From IMG/VR virus record IMGVR_UViG_3300014682_000012: DNA of 7,049 bases; one strand, given 5' to 3'. Position 1 is the stretch's first letter; each line of letters starts with the position of its first letter. The position numbers were made by a program, and so were the translations under genes. Positions 1-7,049 of the stretch are shown one piece after another. Under the pieces are notes generated by a model, which worked only from the letters and a program-made list of their open reading frames with translations, was not told the origin of the DNA and searched no databases. Origin of the DNA: a virus. Taxonomy: Duplodnaviria > Heunggongvirae > Uroviricota > Caudoviricetes.

Positions 1-759
1 CTCAACCAGATCACTATCGAAATTCACCGAAATAAGTACGTTCTGATTCTTTTTCGGCATTCGCTCACTACAGCTTATCCAACCATCCGGAGTTACCGGA
101 GAGTTGCCCGATAGTGCATTCTGCTCCAGTGATGCTTTTACAAACCACGCTGCCTGAACTATTACGCCATGAATCCAGCGCAAATCAGCATCGCGATCGT
201 TCTTTTTCATCTTCTCGCCACTTAAAGCCTGGCTTATGTGGCTGCGTACCAGGTCTTCATGTAACTCCTTCGCATCCTCAATAGTGAAACCACCAGGCAG
301 GCGAGCCGGGGTTACATGAGGGTTGCCTTCCCTCTGACTCTGAAGCATGGCGGCGCGGCAGGCATTCCAGGCAAATAGTGCGGCTTCTTCCACTGAAGGC
401 GGAGAGTATCGCTCGATAAACGCCTGTGCATTTGACAGCCTCCACTCATGAGGCACTACCAGCGCTGGAGGGGCGGTGTAAAGCTTACGGGTCTGAACAC
501 CTGCCCCCAGGCATTTCTCTTCCTCAACAAATCCTTCAAAAGCACATTCCCCGCAATCTTCCCATTCTCCCCATTCATCATATTCCGTATCCCACAGGCG
601 GTACTGATATGCCACCGGCTCTGCTTCCAGCGATGCCAGTGCAATACGAAACACATTGGCAAGCAGGCTGTTTGAAGATTGGTTATCGTGCGCCGGGTCA
701 CTCAGGAAACCAGTGATGAATGATTTAATTTCCGCGTTTTCTCTGGTAATAGTGGTCAT
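1..759 (-). CDS. Hypothetical prophage protein, 3-prime end beyond window start (at least 253 aa); acidic Cys/Trp-rich N-terminal part, possible DUF551-like C-terminal segment
   Basis: Not in the ORF track because it runs off the edge. Plus-strand frame-1 triplets 1..759 contain no TTA/CTA/TCA, so the minus-strand frame is open from ATG (759..757) to position 1. RBS AAGAAGGGG lies about 7 nt upstream. The ATG overlaps the TGA of the upstream ORF (ATGA). Translation begins MTTITRENAEIKSF... and includes ...PDGWISCSERMPKKNQNVLISV, which resembles DUF551 from memory. Confidence 0.6.
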   Translation of the reverse strand, partial: MTTITRENAEIKSFITGFLSDPAHDNQSSNSLLANVFRIALASLEAEPVAYQYRLWDTEYDEWGEWEDCGECAFEGFVEEEKCLGAGVQTRKLYTAPPALVVPHEWRLSNAQAFIERYSPPSVEEAALFAWNACRAAMLQSQREGNPHVTPARLPGGFTIEDAKELHEDLVRSHISQALSGEKMKKNDRDADLRWIHGVIVQAAWFVKASLEQNALSGNSPVTPDGWISCSERMPKKNQNVLISVNFDSDLVE

Positions 760-989
760 GCCGTAGCCCCTTCTTGATATTTTTCAAACCAGAACACAAC
801 CGGGTCAGATTTCATTTCAACCAAACCCATACGAATCAGCGCCTTGCCTTTCCCGGAAGCAAGGAATTCACGACGACCATCACTGATAATTCGCCGATAA
901 TCTTCCAGGCTGCTGCAATGCTTGTGCAGATTGCATGGGTGGCATGCCGGAACCATGTTGGATATATCGTCACGTTCCTGGTGAAGCAT
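756..989 (-). CDS. Hypothetical Cys/His-rich small protein (about 77 aa from the first ATG after the gap); true start uncertain because of the N-gap
   Basis: Open frame from ATG at 989..987 to TGA at 758..756 (MLHQERDDISNMVPACHPCNLHKHCSS...). The stop overlaps the downstream start (ATGA), suggesting translational coupling. The track ORF 756..1028 extends through the 10-N gap, so the N-terminus cannot be resolved. Confidence 0.4.
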   Translation of the reverse strand: MLHQERDDISNMVPACHPCNLHKHCSSLEDYRRIISDGRREFLASGKGKALIRMGLVEMKSDPVVFWFEKYQEGATA

Positions 990-999
990 NNNNNNNNNN
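990..999. other. Run of 10 ambiguous bases (assembly gap or masked segment)
   Basis: Directly visible as nnnnnnnnnn at 990..999; it interrupts coding sequence on the minus strand. Confidence 0.95.
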
Positions 1000-1158
1000 G
1001 TCGTTATACAATTCAATAACTGGCTCAATTATTTTCCCGATTGCCCAGACAAAAATTAGCGGGGATATCGGTATCATCAACACGATAAACAGAATGAGAA
1101 ACAGGAATTCTGTTGTTCTACTCTTTCGTGGATATTTTTTTCTGAATAATGTGACCAT
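1000..1158 (-). CDS. Possible small membrane protein (at least 53 aa), C-terminus lost in the N-gap
   Basis: ATG at 1158..1156. Translation MVTLFRKKYPRKSRTTEFLFLILFIVLMIPISPLIFVWAIGKIIEPVIELYND has a basic N-terminus followed by a roughly 23-residue hydrophobic stretch typical of a single transmembrane helix. The frame differs from ORF 756..989, but gap length is unknown. No strong SD directly upstream. Confidence 0.3.
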
Positions 1159-2781: not shown

Positions 2782-3852
2782 TTACCCCCTGAAGCCCGGT
2801 GGAATTTCGGTATCCGGTTCAGAAATATGATTCACACAACGCTGGTTGTTCGTGCCGCTTACCGGGAGCAACCAGGGGTTTTCAAAATTCCGGTCCGGTC
2901 CAAAAAACGTCGTCGCTCGCTGAACAAATTCCGTTCCCGTTTTCCCGGTAGCCGCTAGGTATCTTGCGTAACGCCTCACACCATCCAGCATGGCCTCTGG
3001 TGGCACCCCCTCGCGTAATCTGGCCTTCCAGGCACTGAAAGCGGATTTCTTCGGGTTTGCCCCGGCACGCAACGGGTATTCCCGCCAGACCTGTTCGAAC
3101 ACATCCGGATAATCCACTCGTCCCACAGGCTGCCCGGTGTTTTCCGGGACTACCCGATCGGCTTCCCGCTGAATGGCGGAATCGGCTTCAGGCTGCTGCA
3201 GTTGGTGTGATTGCTCCGGCCTTGCGGTCATCACCTGCTGCACAGCGCCCGAATCGGCTTTCAGCGCATACGCTGAATCGGCTTCCGGTGTCGTGCCTGC
3301 TGGCTGACCAGGATTGACGGTCTGAACATCCCCTGCCTGGTTCGTGGCGTTTTTTACGCCATGGACCATAGTGTTTTGATCTTCTTGATCTGTATCTTTA
3401 TCTGTATCTTTATCTGTCGTGACTCGTCGTGACATGTGCGTGACATTTCGTGACGCGCCGTGACAATCTCCATTTTGTTCCCGCTTTCTTTCCCTCTCTC
3501 GCTGCGCCCTCTTGCGCTCTGCAGGAGATTTTGCGGTTTGCGAAATATTGCCGTTGTCCTCTTTAAGCACCTGGCGTTTTTCCCATCCAGTGATTAAATC
3601 ACCATCAAGTACCCGCCCCTGCATCGTCTGCAAAATTGAATCAATTACCTCTTCTGTCACGTCGAGCGCACTTGCCAAATCTTCTGTCGTGACATCAATG
3701 TGACCTCGCGTGACATTTCGTGACGCGCTCACCAGGAGGTGGATATACACTGCCATCACTGTTGCAATTGGCTGCCCTGACACCCTGGCAATTGTTCGCC
3801 ACTTAGGGTCATTTGGCATGTCATGCCATAATCTGAGCCAGGCGTTAGCCAT
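2782..3852 (-). CDS. Phage replication initiator-like protein (N-terminal winged-helix-like region, low-complexity acidic linker, conserved C-terminal YdaU/DUF1376-like domain)
   Basis: Long ORF (track 2782..3858 begins at GTG; ATG at 3852..3850 has a GGTG RBS). N-terminus MANAWLRLWHDMPNDPKWRTIARVSGQPIATV..., C-terminus DYPDVFEQVWREYPLRAGANPKKSAFSAWKARL...FFGPDRNFENPW. It lies after cro-like and cII-like genes as in lambdoid phages, and carries internal iteron-like repeats. Family assignment is from memory. Confidence 0.75.
   Translation of the reverse strand: MANAWLRLWHDMPNDPKWRTIARVSGQPIATVMAVYIHLLVSASRNVTRGHIDVTTEDLASALDVTEEVIDSILQTMQGRVLDGDLITGWEKRQVLKEDNGNISQTAKSPAERKRAQRERERKREQNGDCHGASRNVTHMSRRVTTDKDTDKDTDQEDQNTMVHGVKNATNQAGDVQTVNPGQPAGTTPEADSAYALKADSGAVQQVMTARPEQSHQLQQPEADSAIQREADRVVPENTGQPVGRVDYPDVFEQVWREYPLRAGANPKKSAFSAWKARLREGVPPEAMLDGVRRYARYLAATGKTGTEFVQRATTFFGPDRNFENPWLLPVSGTNNQRCVNHISEPDTEIPPGFRG
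3361..3464. repeat. Ori-like module inside the initiator gene: AT-rich segment with two GATC sites and a 12-bp tandem repeat (TCTGTATCTTTA, about 2.5 copies), followed by five CGTGAC hexamers phased at 10-11 bp
   Basis: CGTGAC begins at 3418, 3428, 3439, 3449 and 3459. GATC at 3369 and 3378. Tandem repeat at about 3380..3415. The DNA repeat encodes the TDKDTDKDTD linker. Confidence 0.6.
3656..3728. repeat. Second iteron-like array: one inverted GTCACG plus four direct (C/T)GTGAC hexamers at 10-11 bp phasing, including an exact 21-bp copy of GCGTGACATTTCGTGACGCGC also present at 3438..3458
   Basis: Hexamers begin at 3688, 3699 (TGTGAC), 3709 and 3719; inverted copy at 3656..3661. The 21-bp exact repeat is at 3708..3728 and 3438..3458, 270 bp apart. 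Confidence 0.55.
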
Positions 3853-3923
3853 ACTCACCTCTTTTGATACCGAATCTTTTTACTCACAAATTGCCGGAAG
3901 TGATCCGGTATGAATATTGCGAG

Positions 3924-4666: not shown

Positions 4667-5305
4667 ATGAGCAAGCAAACAATATCTGAACGCATAACCC
4701 AACGTATGCATGCGCTAAACCTGAAAGGCAAAGACCTTGTCAATGCCACTGGCGCATCAAAAGGCTCCGTAAGTCAATGGATGAACGGTGGAGGAGCGCC
4801 GTCCTCGCGTTACATAAGTTCACTGGCAAAGATATTGAAAGTAAACGAAAATTGGCTTCTTAATGGAGGAGAGTTAAATACAGGTGATTCGCTTGATCTA
4901 TCTTTACCGCCGATAAAAACGGTTCCGCTACTATCACTTCAGCAGGCAGCAAGCTGGAGTGATTATATGAAAAATTCCTCAATAACCTCTTGTGTGCAGC
5001 TTGTCGGAGAAATCCCGGCCAATACCTTTGCAGTTGTTCTAGAGAGTGACAGTATGTCAACATCTGGTGGGGGAGTTTCCATCCCAAATGGTTCAACAGT
5101 TTTTGTTGATCCCGATCGAACCGTACAACCAGGAAATATTGTCCTTGCCTTGCCCAAAGGGACCACAACACCTGTCATTCGTAAACTGGAGATTGAAGGG
5201 CCGGATATTCTTTTAGTCCCCACGAATCCTCGCTACCCTTCAATTATGCTGGATGATCTATCTTGCATATTGGGCGTATGCTTTAAAATTCAACAAGATA
5301 TTTAA
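4667..5305 (+). CDS. CI-like phage repressor, 212 aa: N-terminal XRE-type HTH plus C-terminal LexA/S24 peptidase-like autocleavage domain
   Basis: Complete ORF. HTH LKGKDLVNATGASKGSVSQWMNG. C-terminal domain with the Ser in VLESDSMS and the Lys in VIRKLEIEG at spacing consistent with the S24 Ser-Lys dyad. No SD before the ATG, consistent with a leaderless transcript as for lambda cI. Confidence 0.9.
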   Translation: MSKQTISERITQRMHALNLKGKDLVNATGASKGSVSQWMNGGGAPSSRYISSLAKILKVNENWLLNGGELNTGDSLDLSLPPIKTVPLLSLQQAASWSDYMKNSSITSCVQLVGEIPANTFAVVLESDSMSTSGGGVSIPNGSTVFVDPDRTVQPGNIVLALPKGTTTPVIRKLEIEGPDILLVPTNPRYPSIMLDDLSCILGVCFKIQQDI

Positions 5306-5389: not shown

Positions 5390-5418
5390 TTGACCTGAAA
5401 AGTTCATTTTTCTAAACT
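5390..5418 (+). promoter_or_regulatory. Putative sigma70 promoter of the ydfABC-dicF (dicB-type) operon
   Basis: TTGACC (5390..5395), 17-bp spacer, TAAACT (5413..5418). Followed by a leader of about 180 nt before the ydfA-like start. Confidence 0.45.
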
Positions 5419-5753: not shown

Positions 5754-5882
5754 ATGGATTTCGACACAATCATGGAAAAGGCTTACGAAGAATACTTCGA
5801 AGGCCTTGCCGAAGGCGAAGAAGCTCTCAGCTTCAGTGAGTTTAAACAGGCGCTTTCCAGCTCGGCAAAATCTAACGGCTGA
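5754..5882 (+). CDS. ydfB: YdfB-like small protein, 42 aa (below the ORF-track size cutoff)
   Basis: ATG at 5754, one nt after the ydfA-like TGA, with AGGTGAG SD. MDFDTIMEKAYEEYFEGLAEGEEALSFSEFKQALSSSAKSNG; stop TGA 5880..5882. Confidence 0.6.
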   Translation: MDFDTIMEKAYEEYFEGLAEGEEALSFSEFKQALSSSAKSNG

Positions 5883-5911
5883 TAAGCGAAGCAGCACCGC
5901 GAGGAATCAGT

Positions 5912-6130
5912 ATGCAGAAACGAGAACCCGTCATCATCGCGCCAGACTATACCGATGATGAACTTTATGAGTGGATGCGCCAGAAAATTAATGCAGCGCA
6001 GGATCTGAAATGGGCCAATGAAGCCAGGGCTAAGCAGGCTGAAAATCTGTCCGCTCTGGAGCAGGATATCACCAGGCTGGAAAAAGCAGCGGCATTAAGC
6101 ATTGCCAGAATGATTACATACCCGCGTTAA
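5912..6130 (+). CDS. ydfC: YdfC-like small protein, 72 aa
   Basis: Complete ORF with GAGGAA RBS. MQKREPVIIAPDYTDDELYEWMRQKINAAQDLKWANEARAKQ... Position after ydfA/ydfB-like genes. Confidence 0.7.
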   Translation: MQKREPVIIAPDYTDDELYEWMRQKINAAQDLKWANEARAKQAENLSALEQDITRLEKAAALSIARMITYPR

Positions 6131-6265
6131 TAGCTAACCAACGAAGCTAAGGTTGGTAATTAAGGAGTTCTCCACGGGTGAGGTGGAGTGCGTGCGCCGG
6201 ACACGGGTGAGCATCCGGTACGTTCTTTAAAAATCTGGATAGTCCCAACTTATTTAAACGGTTAA

Positions 6266-6697
6266 TTATCTTGAGTTCATCCAGAACTTATTATTGCAAG
6301 CGGGGCAAAAAGTACGAAAATGAGCATCAAAGCGCATTATTTCCATTGGCTGAAGTACAGATATTACCTTTTTTCCAAAACATTGTGGGCAAAGATGCAC
6401 AGTTATCTCAGTATCGCCTATAAATTGCTTCTTGGAATATACAAGGGTTCCAGAATCAAGCTTGTTAAGCTTGTAACCTTCCGCCTGTCGCTGAAAATCT
6501 TCTGTCTCTGCAATTTTTGCTTTGAGATGCATTATCTCTTCATCACGAAAGCGGATCGCATCGCAAAGAGAGAAGCATTCCGCCTGAAGCGTGATTAGTT
6601 TGTTCTGAAGTTCAATAGTTGCGGCTTTAACTTCTGCATCCGTTTTTGCGTCATTAATAACCTTAGCGAGACCAGCTGTCTCCTTTATCGCAGCCAT
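6266..6697 (-). CDS. Hypothetical coiled-coil plus zinc-ribbon protein (about 143 aa), antisense to the dicB-type operon between ydfC and dicF
   Basis: Minus-strand ORF (track 6266..6826), most plausibly starting at ATG 6697..6695 (alternatively the in-frame GTG at 6724, or further upstream). Alanine/lysine-rich predicted helical N-terminus, then HLCPQCFGKK...FRTFCPACNNKFW (two CxxC pairs about 22 residues apart). GC about 40 percent, against about 55 percent in flanking DNA. Own promoter upstream. Confidence 0.5.
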   Translation of the reverse strand: MAAIKETAGLAKVINDAKTDAEVKAATIELQNKLITLQAECFSLCDAIRFRDEEIMHLKAKIAETEDFQRQAEGYKLNKLDSGTLVYSKKQFIGDTEITVHLCPQCFGKKVISVLQPMEIMRFDAHFRTFCPACNNKFWMNSR

Positions 6698-6737
6698 AGC
6701 CGCTGACAGTTCTGCTATCACGTTGAGTACTCTTCTC

Positions 6738-6790
6738 GTTGTTGGGGATATCCGGATTATACAAATTTCTTGTTGTTGGGGAATAACAGG
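6738..6790 (-). promoter_or_regulatory. Putative leftward promoter with extended -10 (TGTATAAT), flanked by two copies of an 11-bp direct repeat
   Basis: Minus-strand TATAAT at plus 6761..6756 with TG immediately upstream. Weak -35 (ATTCCC at 6784..6779). The repeat GTTGTTGGGGA on the plus strand (6738..6748 and 6772..6782) covers the predicted +1 and -35 regions. Confidence 0.4.
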
Positions 6791-6970
6791 AACCACCTCG
6801 CCTGACGTGGTTAAAAGCAGGCACACAACGCGAAAGCGTACGGCGAGGTAGCTGGTTTATAGATAGCCTGTCGTTAAATTTTCGTCGACCGTGCGCTTCC
6901 GGTTGTGGCACTCCGCGAAATGGCGCGGCGGTAAGTATGGCGGGGTTATTCCTTCCCCGTTGAGGACACC

Positions 6971-7032: not shown

Positions 7033-7049
7033 TTTCTGGTGACGTTTGG
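7033..7049 (+). ncRNA. dicF: 5-prime end of DicF sRNA (partial; continues beyond window end)
   Basis: TTTCTGGTGACGTTTGG matches my recollection of the first 17 nt of E. coli DicF (UUUCUGGUGACGUUUGGCGGUAUCAG...). Location downstream of ydfA-ydfB-ydfC on the same strand matches the Qin dicB operon. Only 17 nt are visible. Confidence 0.5.

Follow-up and report, generated by a model that had tools for sequence, protein, structure and literature searches.

Rip1, or ring interacting pore 1, is a prophage-borne antiphage protein (Patel et al. 2026, Nature 651:1060, as presented in the review PMC13434031). Members of its family are described as harmless alone and as activated by ring proteins to form a pore of ~12 copies, giving antiphage protection (PMC13434031; conference report PMC12908700). 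According to the review, the N-terminus of Rip1 is an amphipathic helix and its C-terminal half contacts the small-terminase ring; the work summarized there, on the proteins of a Pseudomonas prophage and of HK446, comprises escape mutants mapped to portal and small terminase, a 12:11 complex, and liposome dye release. The Pseudomonas Rip1 occupies the slot that gp30 fills in JBD30, and may be gp30 itself. Late packaging proteins also trigger cell death through Avs1-3 (large terminase) and TerI (small terminase) (PMC13601566), so that these share a death logic set off by conserved late structural or packaging proteins; whereas Rip1-type proteins unite sensor and effector in ~150 residues, these are either STAND NTPases, large and built of several domains, or separate systems. 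These three PMC sources supply the family mechanism used below.

We compared with these systems, and with SieB and Tab, a minus-strand gene lying between ydfC and dicF in the window, i.e., the whole 7,049-nucleotide stretch of Caudoviricetes DNA (IMG/VR record IMGVR_UViG_3300014682_000012) that was analyzed. Like this gene, sieB of lambda and P22 lies antisense in the early-left operon, in a slot close to the immunity region, and has a homologous promoter and leader, with an RNA start annotated in the P22 record. Ranade and Poteete reportedly found in 1993 that SieB, expressed by the prophage, makes infections by superinfecting phages abort, which resembles the role proposed here. The proteins are unrelated: no Pfam family scored above threshold with the window protein, all-against-all BLASTP at 1e-5 split the Rip1-type and two SieB types into separate clusters, and the SieB sequences inspected have long hydrophobic stretches, of which the window protein has none. 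Nor was an internal, esc-like self-protection start evident in the window gene.

Tab (tail assembly blocker, JBD26 gp31) is likewise a minus-strand moron with its own promoter; it sits in the terminase-flanked Casadabanvirus slot that in JBD30 is filled by a Rip1 homologue, and it acts late, against virion morphogenesis. It differs in targeting the tape measure protein and blocking tail assembly with no pore, and in being paired with a counter-defence gene, anti-Tab, the present cassette having no partner gene. As a different, 83-residue protein, Tab was ruled out as the identity of the window protein despite the common Casadabanvirus slot; a paper on an exclusion gene of Fc02 was also considered and had no relation to it.

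The ydfC-dicF cassette and its gene

The segment in question has these features:

5912..6130, plus strand: ydfC, flanking the cassette on its upstream side and the final protein gene in the convergent ydfABC segment (ORF list; near-identical to K-12 ydfC; RefSeq)
6222..6810, no strand assigned: cassette of ~590 bp comprising 3' tail, gene and promoter, absent from K-12 Qin (pairwise alignment)
6266..6721, minus strand: Rip1-family coding sequence, 151 aa, with GTG start at 6721..6719 and TAA stop at 6268..6266
7033..7049, plus strand: 5' part of dicF (17 nt), truncated at the window end and identical to the 5' end of K-12 dicF

Alignment to K-12 gave identity up to 6221 and again from about 6811-6827; at the cassette site, K-12 Qin has about 40 unrelated or degenerate bases, so the interval is not colinear. 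An earlier note on this DNA had put the ydfC-dicF spacing at 902 bp, which is correct (from the ydfC end at 6130 to the dicF start at 7033), and had supposed it longer than in K-12; this also holds, but the K-12 gap is 340 bp and not the ~570 bp given in the note. GC content is 0.41 in the cassette, 0.48 over the window as a whole and 0.54 in the dicF precursor; these values together with the ORF list bear out the description of a low-GC minus-strand ORF antisense between ydfC and dicF. An Rfam scan of the window gave no RNA family match, dicF being missed because only 17 nt of it lie inside.

In the ORF list the minus-strand frame runs from 6266 to 6826, 186 aa counted from the first GTG. The true start is the GTG at 6721 (151 aa) and not the ATG at 6697, which gave the length of 143 aa proposed earlier, since all homologues begin with MIAELSAAM (26 of 26, then all 94 aligned) and RefSeq annotates the same start. 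The GTG is used by all five E. coli alleles. The gene is thus not unannotated, as had been thought: WP_000559912.1, labeled 'hypothetical protein' in RefSeq, has identical bounds in strain GB089.

Pairwise comparison of the E. coli alleles gave a sense-frame pN/pS of 0.17-0.62, with substitutions clustered at third positions of sense codons, indicating that the minus-strand gene is under purifying selection. Homologues reach E=1e-94, a signal well past chance, and >150 homologue clusters occur in Enterobacterales; across genera the reading frame is conserved at 27-80% protein identity, and it is free of frameshifts. With this frame conserved and the interval not colinear with K-12, the conditions under which the earlier note would have counted as refuted do not apply. 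DNA-level homologues occur in 729 of 5,426 complete E. coli genomes (~1 in 7), O157:H7 among them. Searches of Pfam and NCBIfam with the 151-aa protein gave no match above threshold, and neither did PADLOC (2023), whose model set has none for the Rip1 family, which explains why no independent classifier match was obtained. Among these databases and PHROGs, only the last placed the protein, in phrog_1244, a family without assigned function (E=1e-51).

Promoter, leader and 3' end

Upstream of the coding sequence the minus strand carries the following elements:

6791..6826, minus strand: GCCTGCTTTTAACCACGTCAGGCGAGGTGGTT, a conserved element that precedes the -35 and contains short inverted repeats that overlap (cross-phage alignment)
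6780..6785, minus strand: -35 equivalent TATTCC, which matches TTGACA poorly and is followed 18 nt downstream by the -10 (transferred from P22 by alignment)
6756..6761, minus strand: -10 hexamer TATAAT of the sieB-type promoter (read from sequence)
6748..6749, minus strand: predicted transcription start, by homology to the P22 sieB RNA start at 29727, giving a 5' UTR of ~28 nt
6738..6781, minus strand: two direct copies of CCCCAACAAC flanking the -10 (6781->6772 and 6747->6738)
6730..6737, minus strand: Shine-Dalgarno-like GAGAAGAG, 8 nt before the GTG (read from sequence)

Some 60-95 nt of promoter and leader align with the DNA upstream of sieB in P22 and lambda at ~80% identity, which indicates that they are homologous to the sieB promoter; the alignment points to a common slot and promoter, not to a common protein family. 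The -10 (6761->6756) overlaps, one base off, the 3' end (ATAAACT) of the promoter feature in the P22 record (NC_002371.2, 29690-29720), from which the -35 position was carried over, and aligns with TAAAAT in HK446. The GCCTGCTTTTAACCACGTCAGGCGAGGTGGTT element is nearly invariant among this window, HK446, HK620, P22 and lambda. In the latter four, both repeat copies read CCCCTACAG; that the copies changed together suggests constraint, such as a regulator-binding site. The purine-rich block at the Shine-Dalgarno position is kept in all alleles.

The P22 RNA start transfers to 6749/6748, just before the second CCCCAACAAC copy, consistent with the suggestion of the earlier note that the gene has its own promoter and a leftward transcript starting near 6749. 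The -10 is not of the extended type claimed there, the G being at -13 rather than -14. A generic promoter scan did not call the gene's own promoter, owing to the poor -35. A generic terminator scan and folding of the DNA 3' of the gene revealed no canonical terminator; the region folds into two stable hairpins without U-runs. Together with the absence of the cassette from K-12, the sieB-type promoter fits the proposal of a self-contained, promoter-equipped moron convergent with the ydfABC-dicF-dicB transcript.

Homology to Rip1 and proposed mechanism

A profile built from 94 homologues matched PDB 9oox_L (HK446 Rip1) with E=3.7e-21, the match covering profile positions 5-152 of 164 and chain residues 15-160 of 164. 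Pairwise BLASTP gave E=5e-17 with HK446 gp37, 6e-20 with HK620 HkaP and 4e-19 with JBD30 gp30, as compared with 9e-27 between the HK446 and JBD30 homologues, and all four proteins belong to phrog_1244. These matches indicate that the antisense gene is a real, prophage-carried relative of Rip1, and hence that it adds a member to a known family and does not represent a system of a new kind. The protein can accordingly be placed in a family, which had seemed out of reach before, and the idea that it is a defence candidate gains the backing of sequence and fold homology to an antiphage protein. With only 27-31% identity to the Rip1 proteins studied so far, the window protein may differ from them in what triggers it and even in its activity.

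The predicted fold has two parts:

6482..6721, minus strand: N-terminal helical half, residues 1-80 (AlphaFold helices 2-24 and 28-80, pLDDT 80-95)
6269..6472, minus strand: C-terminal beta-rich domain with four-Cys zinc ribbon, residues 84-151 (AlphaFold strands 84-150, pLDDT ~95)

The model matches the layout of the Rip1 cryo-EM structure, N-terminal helices followed by a C-terminal ring-contacting domain, and homology to HK446 Rip1 runs over the full length, with 151 aa here against 164. The helices agree with the Ala/Lys-rich helical N-terminus noticed earlier and visible in the translation, and the two CxxC pairs reported at that time are CPQC and CPAC, 24 residues apart. Their cysteines (111, 114, 139 and 142) are invariant in the 94 homologues, align with the Cys pairs of HK446, HK620 and JBD30, and are predicted to form the zinc ribbon. 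The window protein differs from the HK446 protein in its GTG start and in missing the latter's ~10-residue N-terminal extension, and from most relatives in its shorter C-terminal tail.

Genomic setting adds to the likeness. As with Rip1, this is a single-gene prophage moron with its own promoter, transcribed against the surrounding phage operon, and a sieB-type promoter also precedes the HK446 gene. The HK446 homologue is antisense in the early-left operon adjoining N, as distinct from the Qin/Rac-type dicB operon occupied here; that of HK620 is also antisense in the early-left operon, and JBD30 gp30 is antisense between terminase genes. In O157:H7 and other E. coli a homologue fills the same ydfA/ydfC-dicB slot, and a yfdP-type prophage carries one in a slot that, as in JBD30 and HK446, has no dicF.

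By analogy with Rip1, the N-terminal half may be the membrane-active, pore-forming part and the C-terminal zinc-ribbon domain the sensor that touches the phage ring. In the family alignment the N-terminus is the most conserved stretch (commonest-residue frequency 0.86 over residues 1-40) and the C-terminal domain the most variable (0.47-0.63), as might be expected of an effector joined to a sensor engaged in an arms race. The hydrophobic moment of residues 7-30 (~0.34) is marginal, being equalled by 7-8% of shuffles; that of the HK446 N-terminus is 0.42, equalled by 0.8%. By hydrophobicity the 151-aa protein has no predicted membrane segment: over residues 1-102, the highest mean hydrophobicity in 18-residue windows was 0.40, in the Ala-rich N-terminus, and the AlphaFold model is a soluble helix plus beta domain.

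We consider it probable that this is a Rip1-family antiphage gene in the sieB slot, expressed from a sieB-type promoter and acting through a ring-triggered pore to cause abortive infection. The gene itself, its selection, its cassette nature, its sequence and fold homology to Rip1 and its promoter homology to sieB were computed here; expression in the lysogen, trigger, pore and defence phenotype are carried over from homologues. The sieB-type promoter would be active while the prophage is repressed, and the lysogen would make the protein constitutively, harmless alone. Late expression by a superinfecting phage would supply ring oligomers (of small terminase for coliphages and of portal for Pseudomonas phages), around which the variable zinc-ribbon domain would dock. 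About 12 copies would then assemble and their conserved N-terminal helices form an inner-membrane pore, permeabilizing the cell before progeny are finished, i.e., abortive infection.

Other readings and wider meaning

A Rip1 homologue could instead act by classical superinfection exclusion at or near DNA entry, with no ring-templated pore. An older description of JBD30 gp30 has it that the protein 'blocks phage genome injection' (Tsao et al. 2018, as quoted in the JBD30 paper), and hkaP of HK620 carries the annotation 'putative superinfection exclusion protein'. In addition, the gene makes use of the slot and promoter of sieB, and its product has low identity to the studied Rip1 proteins. We nevertheless judge exclusion unlikely, given the escape mutants, 12:11 complex and liposome dye release of the later work described in the review for studied Rip1 proteins (PMC13434031), the lack of a predicted membrane segment, and the lack of similarity to SieB.

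Less likely still is a role that is regulatory first, with convergent transcription or antisense RNA tuning DicF/DicB through the ydfABC-dicF-dicB precursor and the protein secondary. The predicted transcript would be antisense to ~480 nt of the spacer between ydfC and dicF and, with no clear terminator to stop it, might continue into ydfC; moreover, every family member examined is antisense to a strong phage operon. Against this, the frame is under purifying selection, is recognizable across genera, and is also found in slots without dicF; K-12 makes DicF without the cassette; and the start lies 284 nt upstream of dicF. With its start near 6749 and its direction away from dicF, which begins at 7033, the transcript could not pair with DicF, and this makes antisense control of DicF the weak branch of the earlier note. 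A primary role in such control is not supported; interference with the operon precursor is possible.

Another candidate is a regulator that joins a coiled coil to a zinc finger and binds nucleic acid or RNA polymerase, of the DksA/TraR or a similar type, such as many lambdoid phages carry. It is superficially alike in having a long helix and then a C4 zinc motif, and there are weak Pfam zinc-domain matches (DnaJ CXXCXGXG, E=0.035; TerY_C, E=0.12); this is highly improbable, and was rejected, as the window protein has no DksA/TraR-family C4 zinc finger terminating a coiled coil.

We give practically no weight to the notion that the region is non-coding or that its gene is the plus-strand ORF 6320..6598, rejected because this frame, although each of the five E. 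coli alleles keeps it open over 107-132 codons, is a 'shadow' that complements the minus-strand frame exactly, codon by codon, has a pN/pS (0.58-0.87) that exceeds the sense-frame value in all 10 pairs (with one near tie, 0.62 vs 0.65), leaves substitutions gathered at sense third positions, and faces a minus-strand product homologous to a protein of solved structure. Codon usage is known to leave long open frames on the codon complement.

Returning to the Rip1-type reading, its promoter may have a wider use. As an exact probe, GCCTGCTTTTAACCACGTCAGGCGAGGTGGTT is found in at least 120 viral contigs, and among the matches listed the sieB-type promoter precedes >20 different cargo clusters. Among the cargo are the ECs1072 family, two kinds of membrane protein (106 aa and ~148 aa), proteins of 61-81 aa, and a protein of 136 aa with a coiled coil and a zinc ribbon, for which BLAST gives no link to Rip1. 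The same promoter ahead of many unrelated cargo genes points to the slot as a swap site; a search of the literature gave no specific account of a 'sieB hot spot'. It is conceivable, and we offer it tentatively, that the promoter and leader (6826->6722) are a portable expression module marking a site where defence genes are swapped, that the Enterobacterales Rip1 clade senses a ring other than small terminase or portal, and that convergent placement silences the gene upon derepression of the dicB operon and so spares the lytic cycle of its own prophage.

The cassette accounts for strain-to-strain length differences in the ydfC-dicF spacer, and studies of DicF/DicB expression in pathogenic E. 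coli may be affected, since there the precursor contains a convergent promoter. A widespread E. coli 'hypothetical protein' gains a probable function as a one-protein, pore-forming abortive-infection defence. If the module reading is true, the unrelated small proteins behind the promoter would be uncharacterized antiphage genes of lambdoid and Qin/Rac-type prophages. Of wider practical use is the conserved sieB-type promoter with its varied cargo, a cheap route to candidate prophage defence genes.

Gene bounds, coding frame and family

Between ydfC and dicF, convergent with the dicB operon, lies a single, cassette-borne gene that is under selection and has the sequence and fold of Rip1 (ring interacting pore 1), an antiphage protein. 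The window around it comes from a Qin/Rac-like lambdoid prophage and represents its early region.

Layout of the window
Minus strand: replication and ydaT-type genes
2782..3858, minus strand: replication gene, DnaT-like/O-like
3383-3418, 3426-3464 and 3686-3724: repeat and GTGAC sites within the replication gene
4667..5305, plus strand: cI-like S24 repressor
5390-5418, plus strand: pL-like promoter (generic promoter scan)
Plus strand: ydfA, ydfB, then ydfC (5912..6130)
6266..6721, minus strand: Rip1-type gene
6719-6721, minus strand: its GTG start codon
6320-6598, plus strand: 92-aa ORF in the exact codon-complement frame of the Rip1-type gene
7033..7049, plus strand: dicF, first 17 nt only, at the window end

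The earlier note's minus-strand antisense gene is confirmed by RefSeq and by aligned homologues, but it was not unannotated as had been thought: RefSeq lists it in strain GB089 as 6266..6721, with a GTG start and a 151-aa product, 'hypothetical protein' WP_000559912.1. The longest minus-strand ORF between ydfC and dicF, taken from the first possible start, spans 6266..6826; its 35 codons upstream of the GTG have no counterpart in an alignment of 26 homologues or in a larger one of 94, and every sequence in both carries MIAELSAAM at residue 1. The start codon is GTG in all five E. coli alleles extracted, and ATG in HK446 and HK620. Because the MIAELSAAM start is conserved and every allele has the GTG, the ATG at 6697, from which a 143-aa protein had been read, is an internal Met. 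The weak but conserved GTG may hold down production of a protein that is potentially lethal.

Among the five alleles, dN/dS in the sense frame was 0.16-0.54, with substitutions mostly at third positions. The plus-strand codon-complement frame is likewise open in all five (107-132 codons), and the ORF at 6320..6598 had been raised as possibly the conserved frame. Its constraint is weaker, however: pN/pS over the ten allele pairs was 0.58-0.87, versus 0.17-0.62 in the sense frame, and was the higher in every pair, though nearly tied in the closest (0.62 versus 0.65). It was rejected as the functional frame on this ground and is regarded as a shadow ORF.

Searches of Pfam, NCBIfam and PADLOC gave no match above threshold, and PHROGs placed the protein in phrog_1244 ('unknown function', E=1e-51). 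A search of a large protein collection gave matches to 152 clusters at E<=1e-3; the best 120 span ~51% to 100% identity and many Enterobacterales genera, all 'hypothetical'. Translated searches of phage genomes found relatives of ~51% identity in temperate phages of E. coli and Klebsiella, and of ~27-31% in HK620 (hkaP), HK630, HK629 and HK446 and in the Pseudomonas Mu-like phages DMS3, JBD30, D3112 and MP38. A profile of the window protein's family matched the Rip1 chain of coliphage HK446 (PDB 9oox_L) over essentially its full length (E=3.7e-21). By BLASTP the window protein matched HK446 gp37 (5e-17), HK620 HkaP (6e-20) and JBD30 gp30 (4e-19), and the HK446 protein matched that of JBD30 (9e-27). 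Four cysteines are invariant across the homologues aligned, including those of HK446, HK620 and JBD30. Membership of the Rip1 family is near certain for a protein that the earlier note could not place; it is a divergent, uncharacterised member of a family itself recently described.

The cassette and its sieB-type promoter

In K-12 MG1655 the gap between the end of ydfC (1649041) and the start of dicF (1649382) is 340 bp (not the ~570 bp suggested earlier), versus 902 bp in the window, so that the suspicion of a longer interval was correct. Pairwise alignment showed near identity up to 6221 and again from ~6811-6827; between these points ~590 bp in the window, an insertion relative to K-12, face ~40 unrelated or degenerate bases there. 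The low GC content remarked on earlier also holds, the cassette having 41%, the whole window 48% and the dicF precursor 54%. Near-identical cassettes occur in only 59 of 5,426 complete E. coli genomes, and DNA-level homologues covering at least 80% of the cassette in 729, including O157:H7. In O157:H7 and three other strains the homologue is antisense in a similar location, between the repressor/ydfA side and dicB; in one yfdP-type prophage, other early-left genes replace dicB beside it.

Elsewhere in the window, the repressor is a 212-aa cI/LexA-like S24 protein, and different, shorter regulators occupy its position in GB089 (5813-6232 of that locus) and K-12 Qin (2935-3342), although the ydfA-dicF side is nearly identical in all three; such mosaicism is usual for immunity regions. 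The replication gene contains a 12-nt repeat (TCTTKATCTGTM) in three tandem copies, along with two clusters of reiterated GTGAC motifs separated by 260 nt; these resemble origin iterons inside an initiator gene, as in lambda O. A ten-N run at 990-999, a masked or unresolved stretch of the source, breaks minus-strand ORF 756..1028, whose product has an HNH-like motif (CHPCNLHKH).

Promoter and leader of the Rip1-type gene (all minus strand)
6826->6791: conserved element upstream of the -35, GCCTGCTTTTAACCACGTCAGGCGAGGTGGTT
6785->6780: -35-equivalent TATTCC (P22 annotation carried through the alignment)
6781->6772: second copy of CCCCAACAAC
6761->6756: -10, perfect TATAAT
6749/6748: predicted transcription start (P22 sieB RNA start carried through the alignment)
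6747->6738: copy of CCCCAACAAC nearer the GTG
6737->6730: purine-rich Shine-Dalgarno-like block

A generic promoter scan did not call this promoter because its -35 is poor. The ~100-nt promoter/leader block is nevertheless conserved between the window, HK446 and HK620, although identity among the proteins is only ~27-31%. In a DNA search of phage genomes it proved homologous to the sequence preceding sieB in P22 and lambda. The P22 reference record places the sieB promoter at 29690-29720 and the RNA start site at 29727; lambda sieB begins 28 nt past the matched stretch. This homology puts the Rip1-type gene, as judged from sequence, in the sieB slot of the lambdoid early-left operon with a sieB-type promoter. 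HK446 rip1 and HK620 hkaP occupy the same slot, adjoining N. The start near 6749 proposed in the earlier note agrees with the transferred one, and its claim of an own promoter stands on the sieB homology; the extended -10 does not, with G at -13. Work by Ranade and Poteete in 1993 reportedly showed that the P22/lambda sieB promoter drives a prophage-expressed exclusion gene.

Both CCCCAACAAC copies flank the -10, and HK446, HK620, P22 and lambda have CCCCTACAG at both positions. The two 10-nt copies thus change together between the window and these phages; one possibility is a regulator-binding site. The element GCCTGCTTTTAACCACGTCAGGCGAGGTGGTT contains overlapping short inverted repeats (GCCTG/CAGGC, AACCAC/GTGGTT) and is nearly invariant across phages with differing downstream genes. 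K-12 Qin retains a degenerate trace of its outer edge only, which hints that K-12 lost the cassette.

Possible exchange of genes in the sieB slot

In many E. coli genomes only the promoter portion of the cassette is matched. Those inspected have unrelated genes behind this module in the same slot: one for an 'ECs1072 family' protein, a 106-aa membrane ORF without annotation, or a small ORF with a 148-aa membrane protein after it. When viral contigs were scanned for exact matches to the conserved core, at least 120 loci were found, and the first downstream ORF was clustered in 105 of them. P22-type SieB (20), Rip1-type (15), the 106-aa membrane protein (11) and lambda-type SieB (8) were accompanied by more than 15 further small-protein clusters, including small zinc-ribbon proteins. 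Several 55-100-aa proteins are also among the first genes behind the module (6722-6826, minus strand). Some singleton ORFs are probably spurious; multi-member clusters begin at fixed offsets from the module. On viral contig IMGVR_UViG_2675903675_000003 the same promoter precedes a 136-aa protein whose N-terminus is a coiled coil and whose C-terminus has CxxC...CxxC; the protein did not cluster with Rip1 at BLASTP 1e-5 and may be a more distant relative. A literature search on such a swap site found no paper, though the Rip1 paper (Patel et al.) may describe it. Judged by these comparisons, the sieB slot appears to be a hot spot where cargo is swapped behind a single conserved promoter.

Probable Rip1-type defence and the dicB operon

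As relayed in a 2026 review (PMC13434031), Patel et al. found Rip1 alone to be non-toxic and rod-shaped cells carrying it to become spheres upon superinfection. In the review's account, Pseudomonas phages escape through portal mutations and E. coli phages through small-terminase mutations, and cryo-EM shows 12 Rip1 monomers encircling an 11-mer small-terminase ring. The review describes the N-terminus as an amphipathic helix and the C-terminal half as contacting the ring, the complex as releasing dye from liposomes and making holes in cells, and relatives as widespread in Proteobacteria, chiefly in prophages; what a meeting report (PMC12908700) and a 2026 Nature Communications paper (PMC13601566) say of Rip1 agrees. 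JBD30 gp30, a moron whose earlier listing reads 'blocks phage genome injection', sits exactly in the Pseudomonas Rip1 terminase slot, on the strand opposite to every neighbour. Tab, a defence from JBD26 in that same slot, is a different, 83-residue protein.

By analogy, a lysogen would make the Rip1-type protein constitutively, its C-terminal zinc-ribbon domain would dock around a late, ring-forming protein of a superinfecting phage, ~12 copies would assemble, and their N-terminal helices would form a pore, with abortive infection as the outcome. We consider this explanation as a whole probable, and the moron or defence reading of the earlier note is supported by the Rip1 sequence and fold of a single cassette-borne gene. 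The N-terminus scored only marginally when tested for amphipathicity. Among homologues, commonest-residue frequency is 0.86 over residues 1-40 and 0.47-0.63 in the C-terminal domain; a conserved N-terminus and variable C-terminus fit a fixed effector joined to an arms-race sensor.

Antisense interference with DicF/DicB expression had also been proposed. Because the predicted transcript begins 284 nt upstream of dicF and heads away from it, pairing with DicF itself would be impossible. Slots without dicF hold family members whose protein sequence is conserved, and K-12 makes DicF without the cassette. At its other end the transcript would arrive at two stable hairpins at 6150-6225 (CCGGAUGC...GUGUCCGG and CUCCAC...GUGGAG), directly past ydfC, which are common to the K-12 backbone, lack U-runs on either strand and may serve the dicF precursor as signals for processing or termination. 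A generic scan and folding of the 3' region found no canonical terminator for the gene. Convergent transcription could dampen the ydfABC-dicF-dicB precursor; more plausibly, when the prophage itself enters lytic growth, transcription of the derepressed operon could shut the defence gene off.
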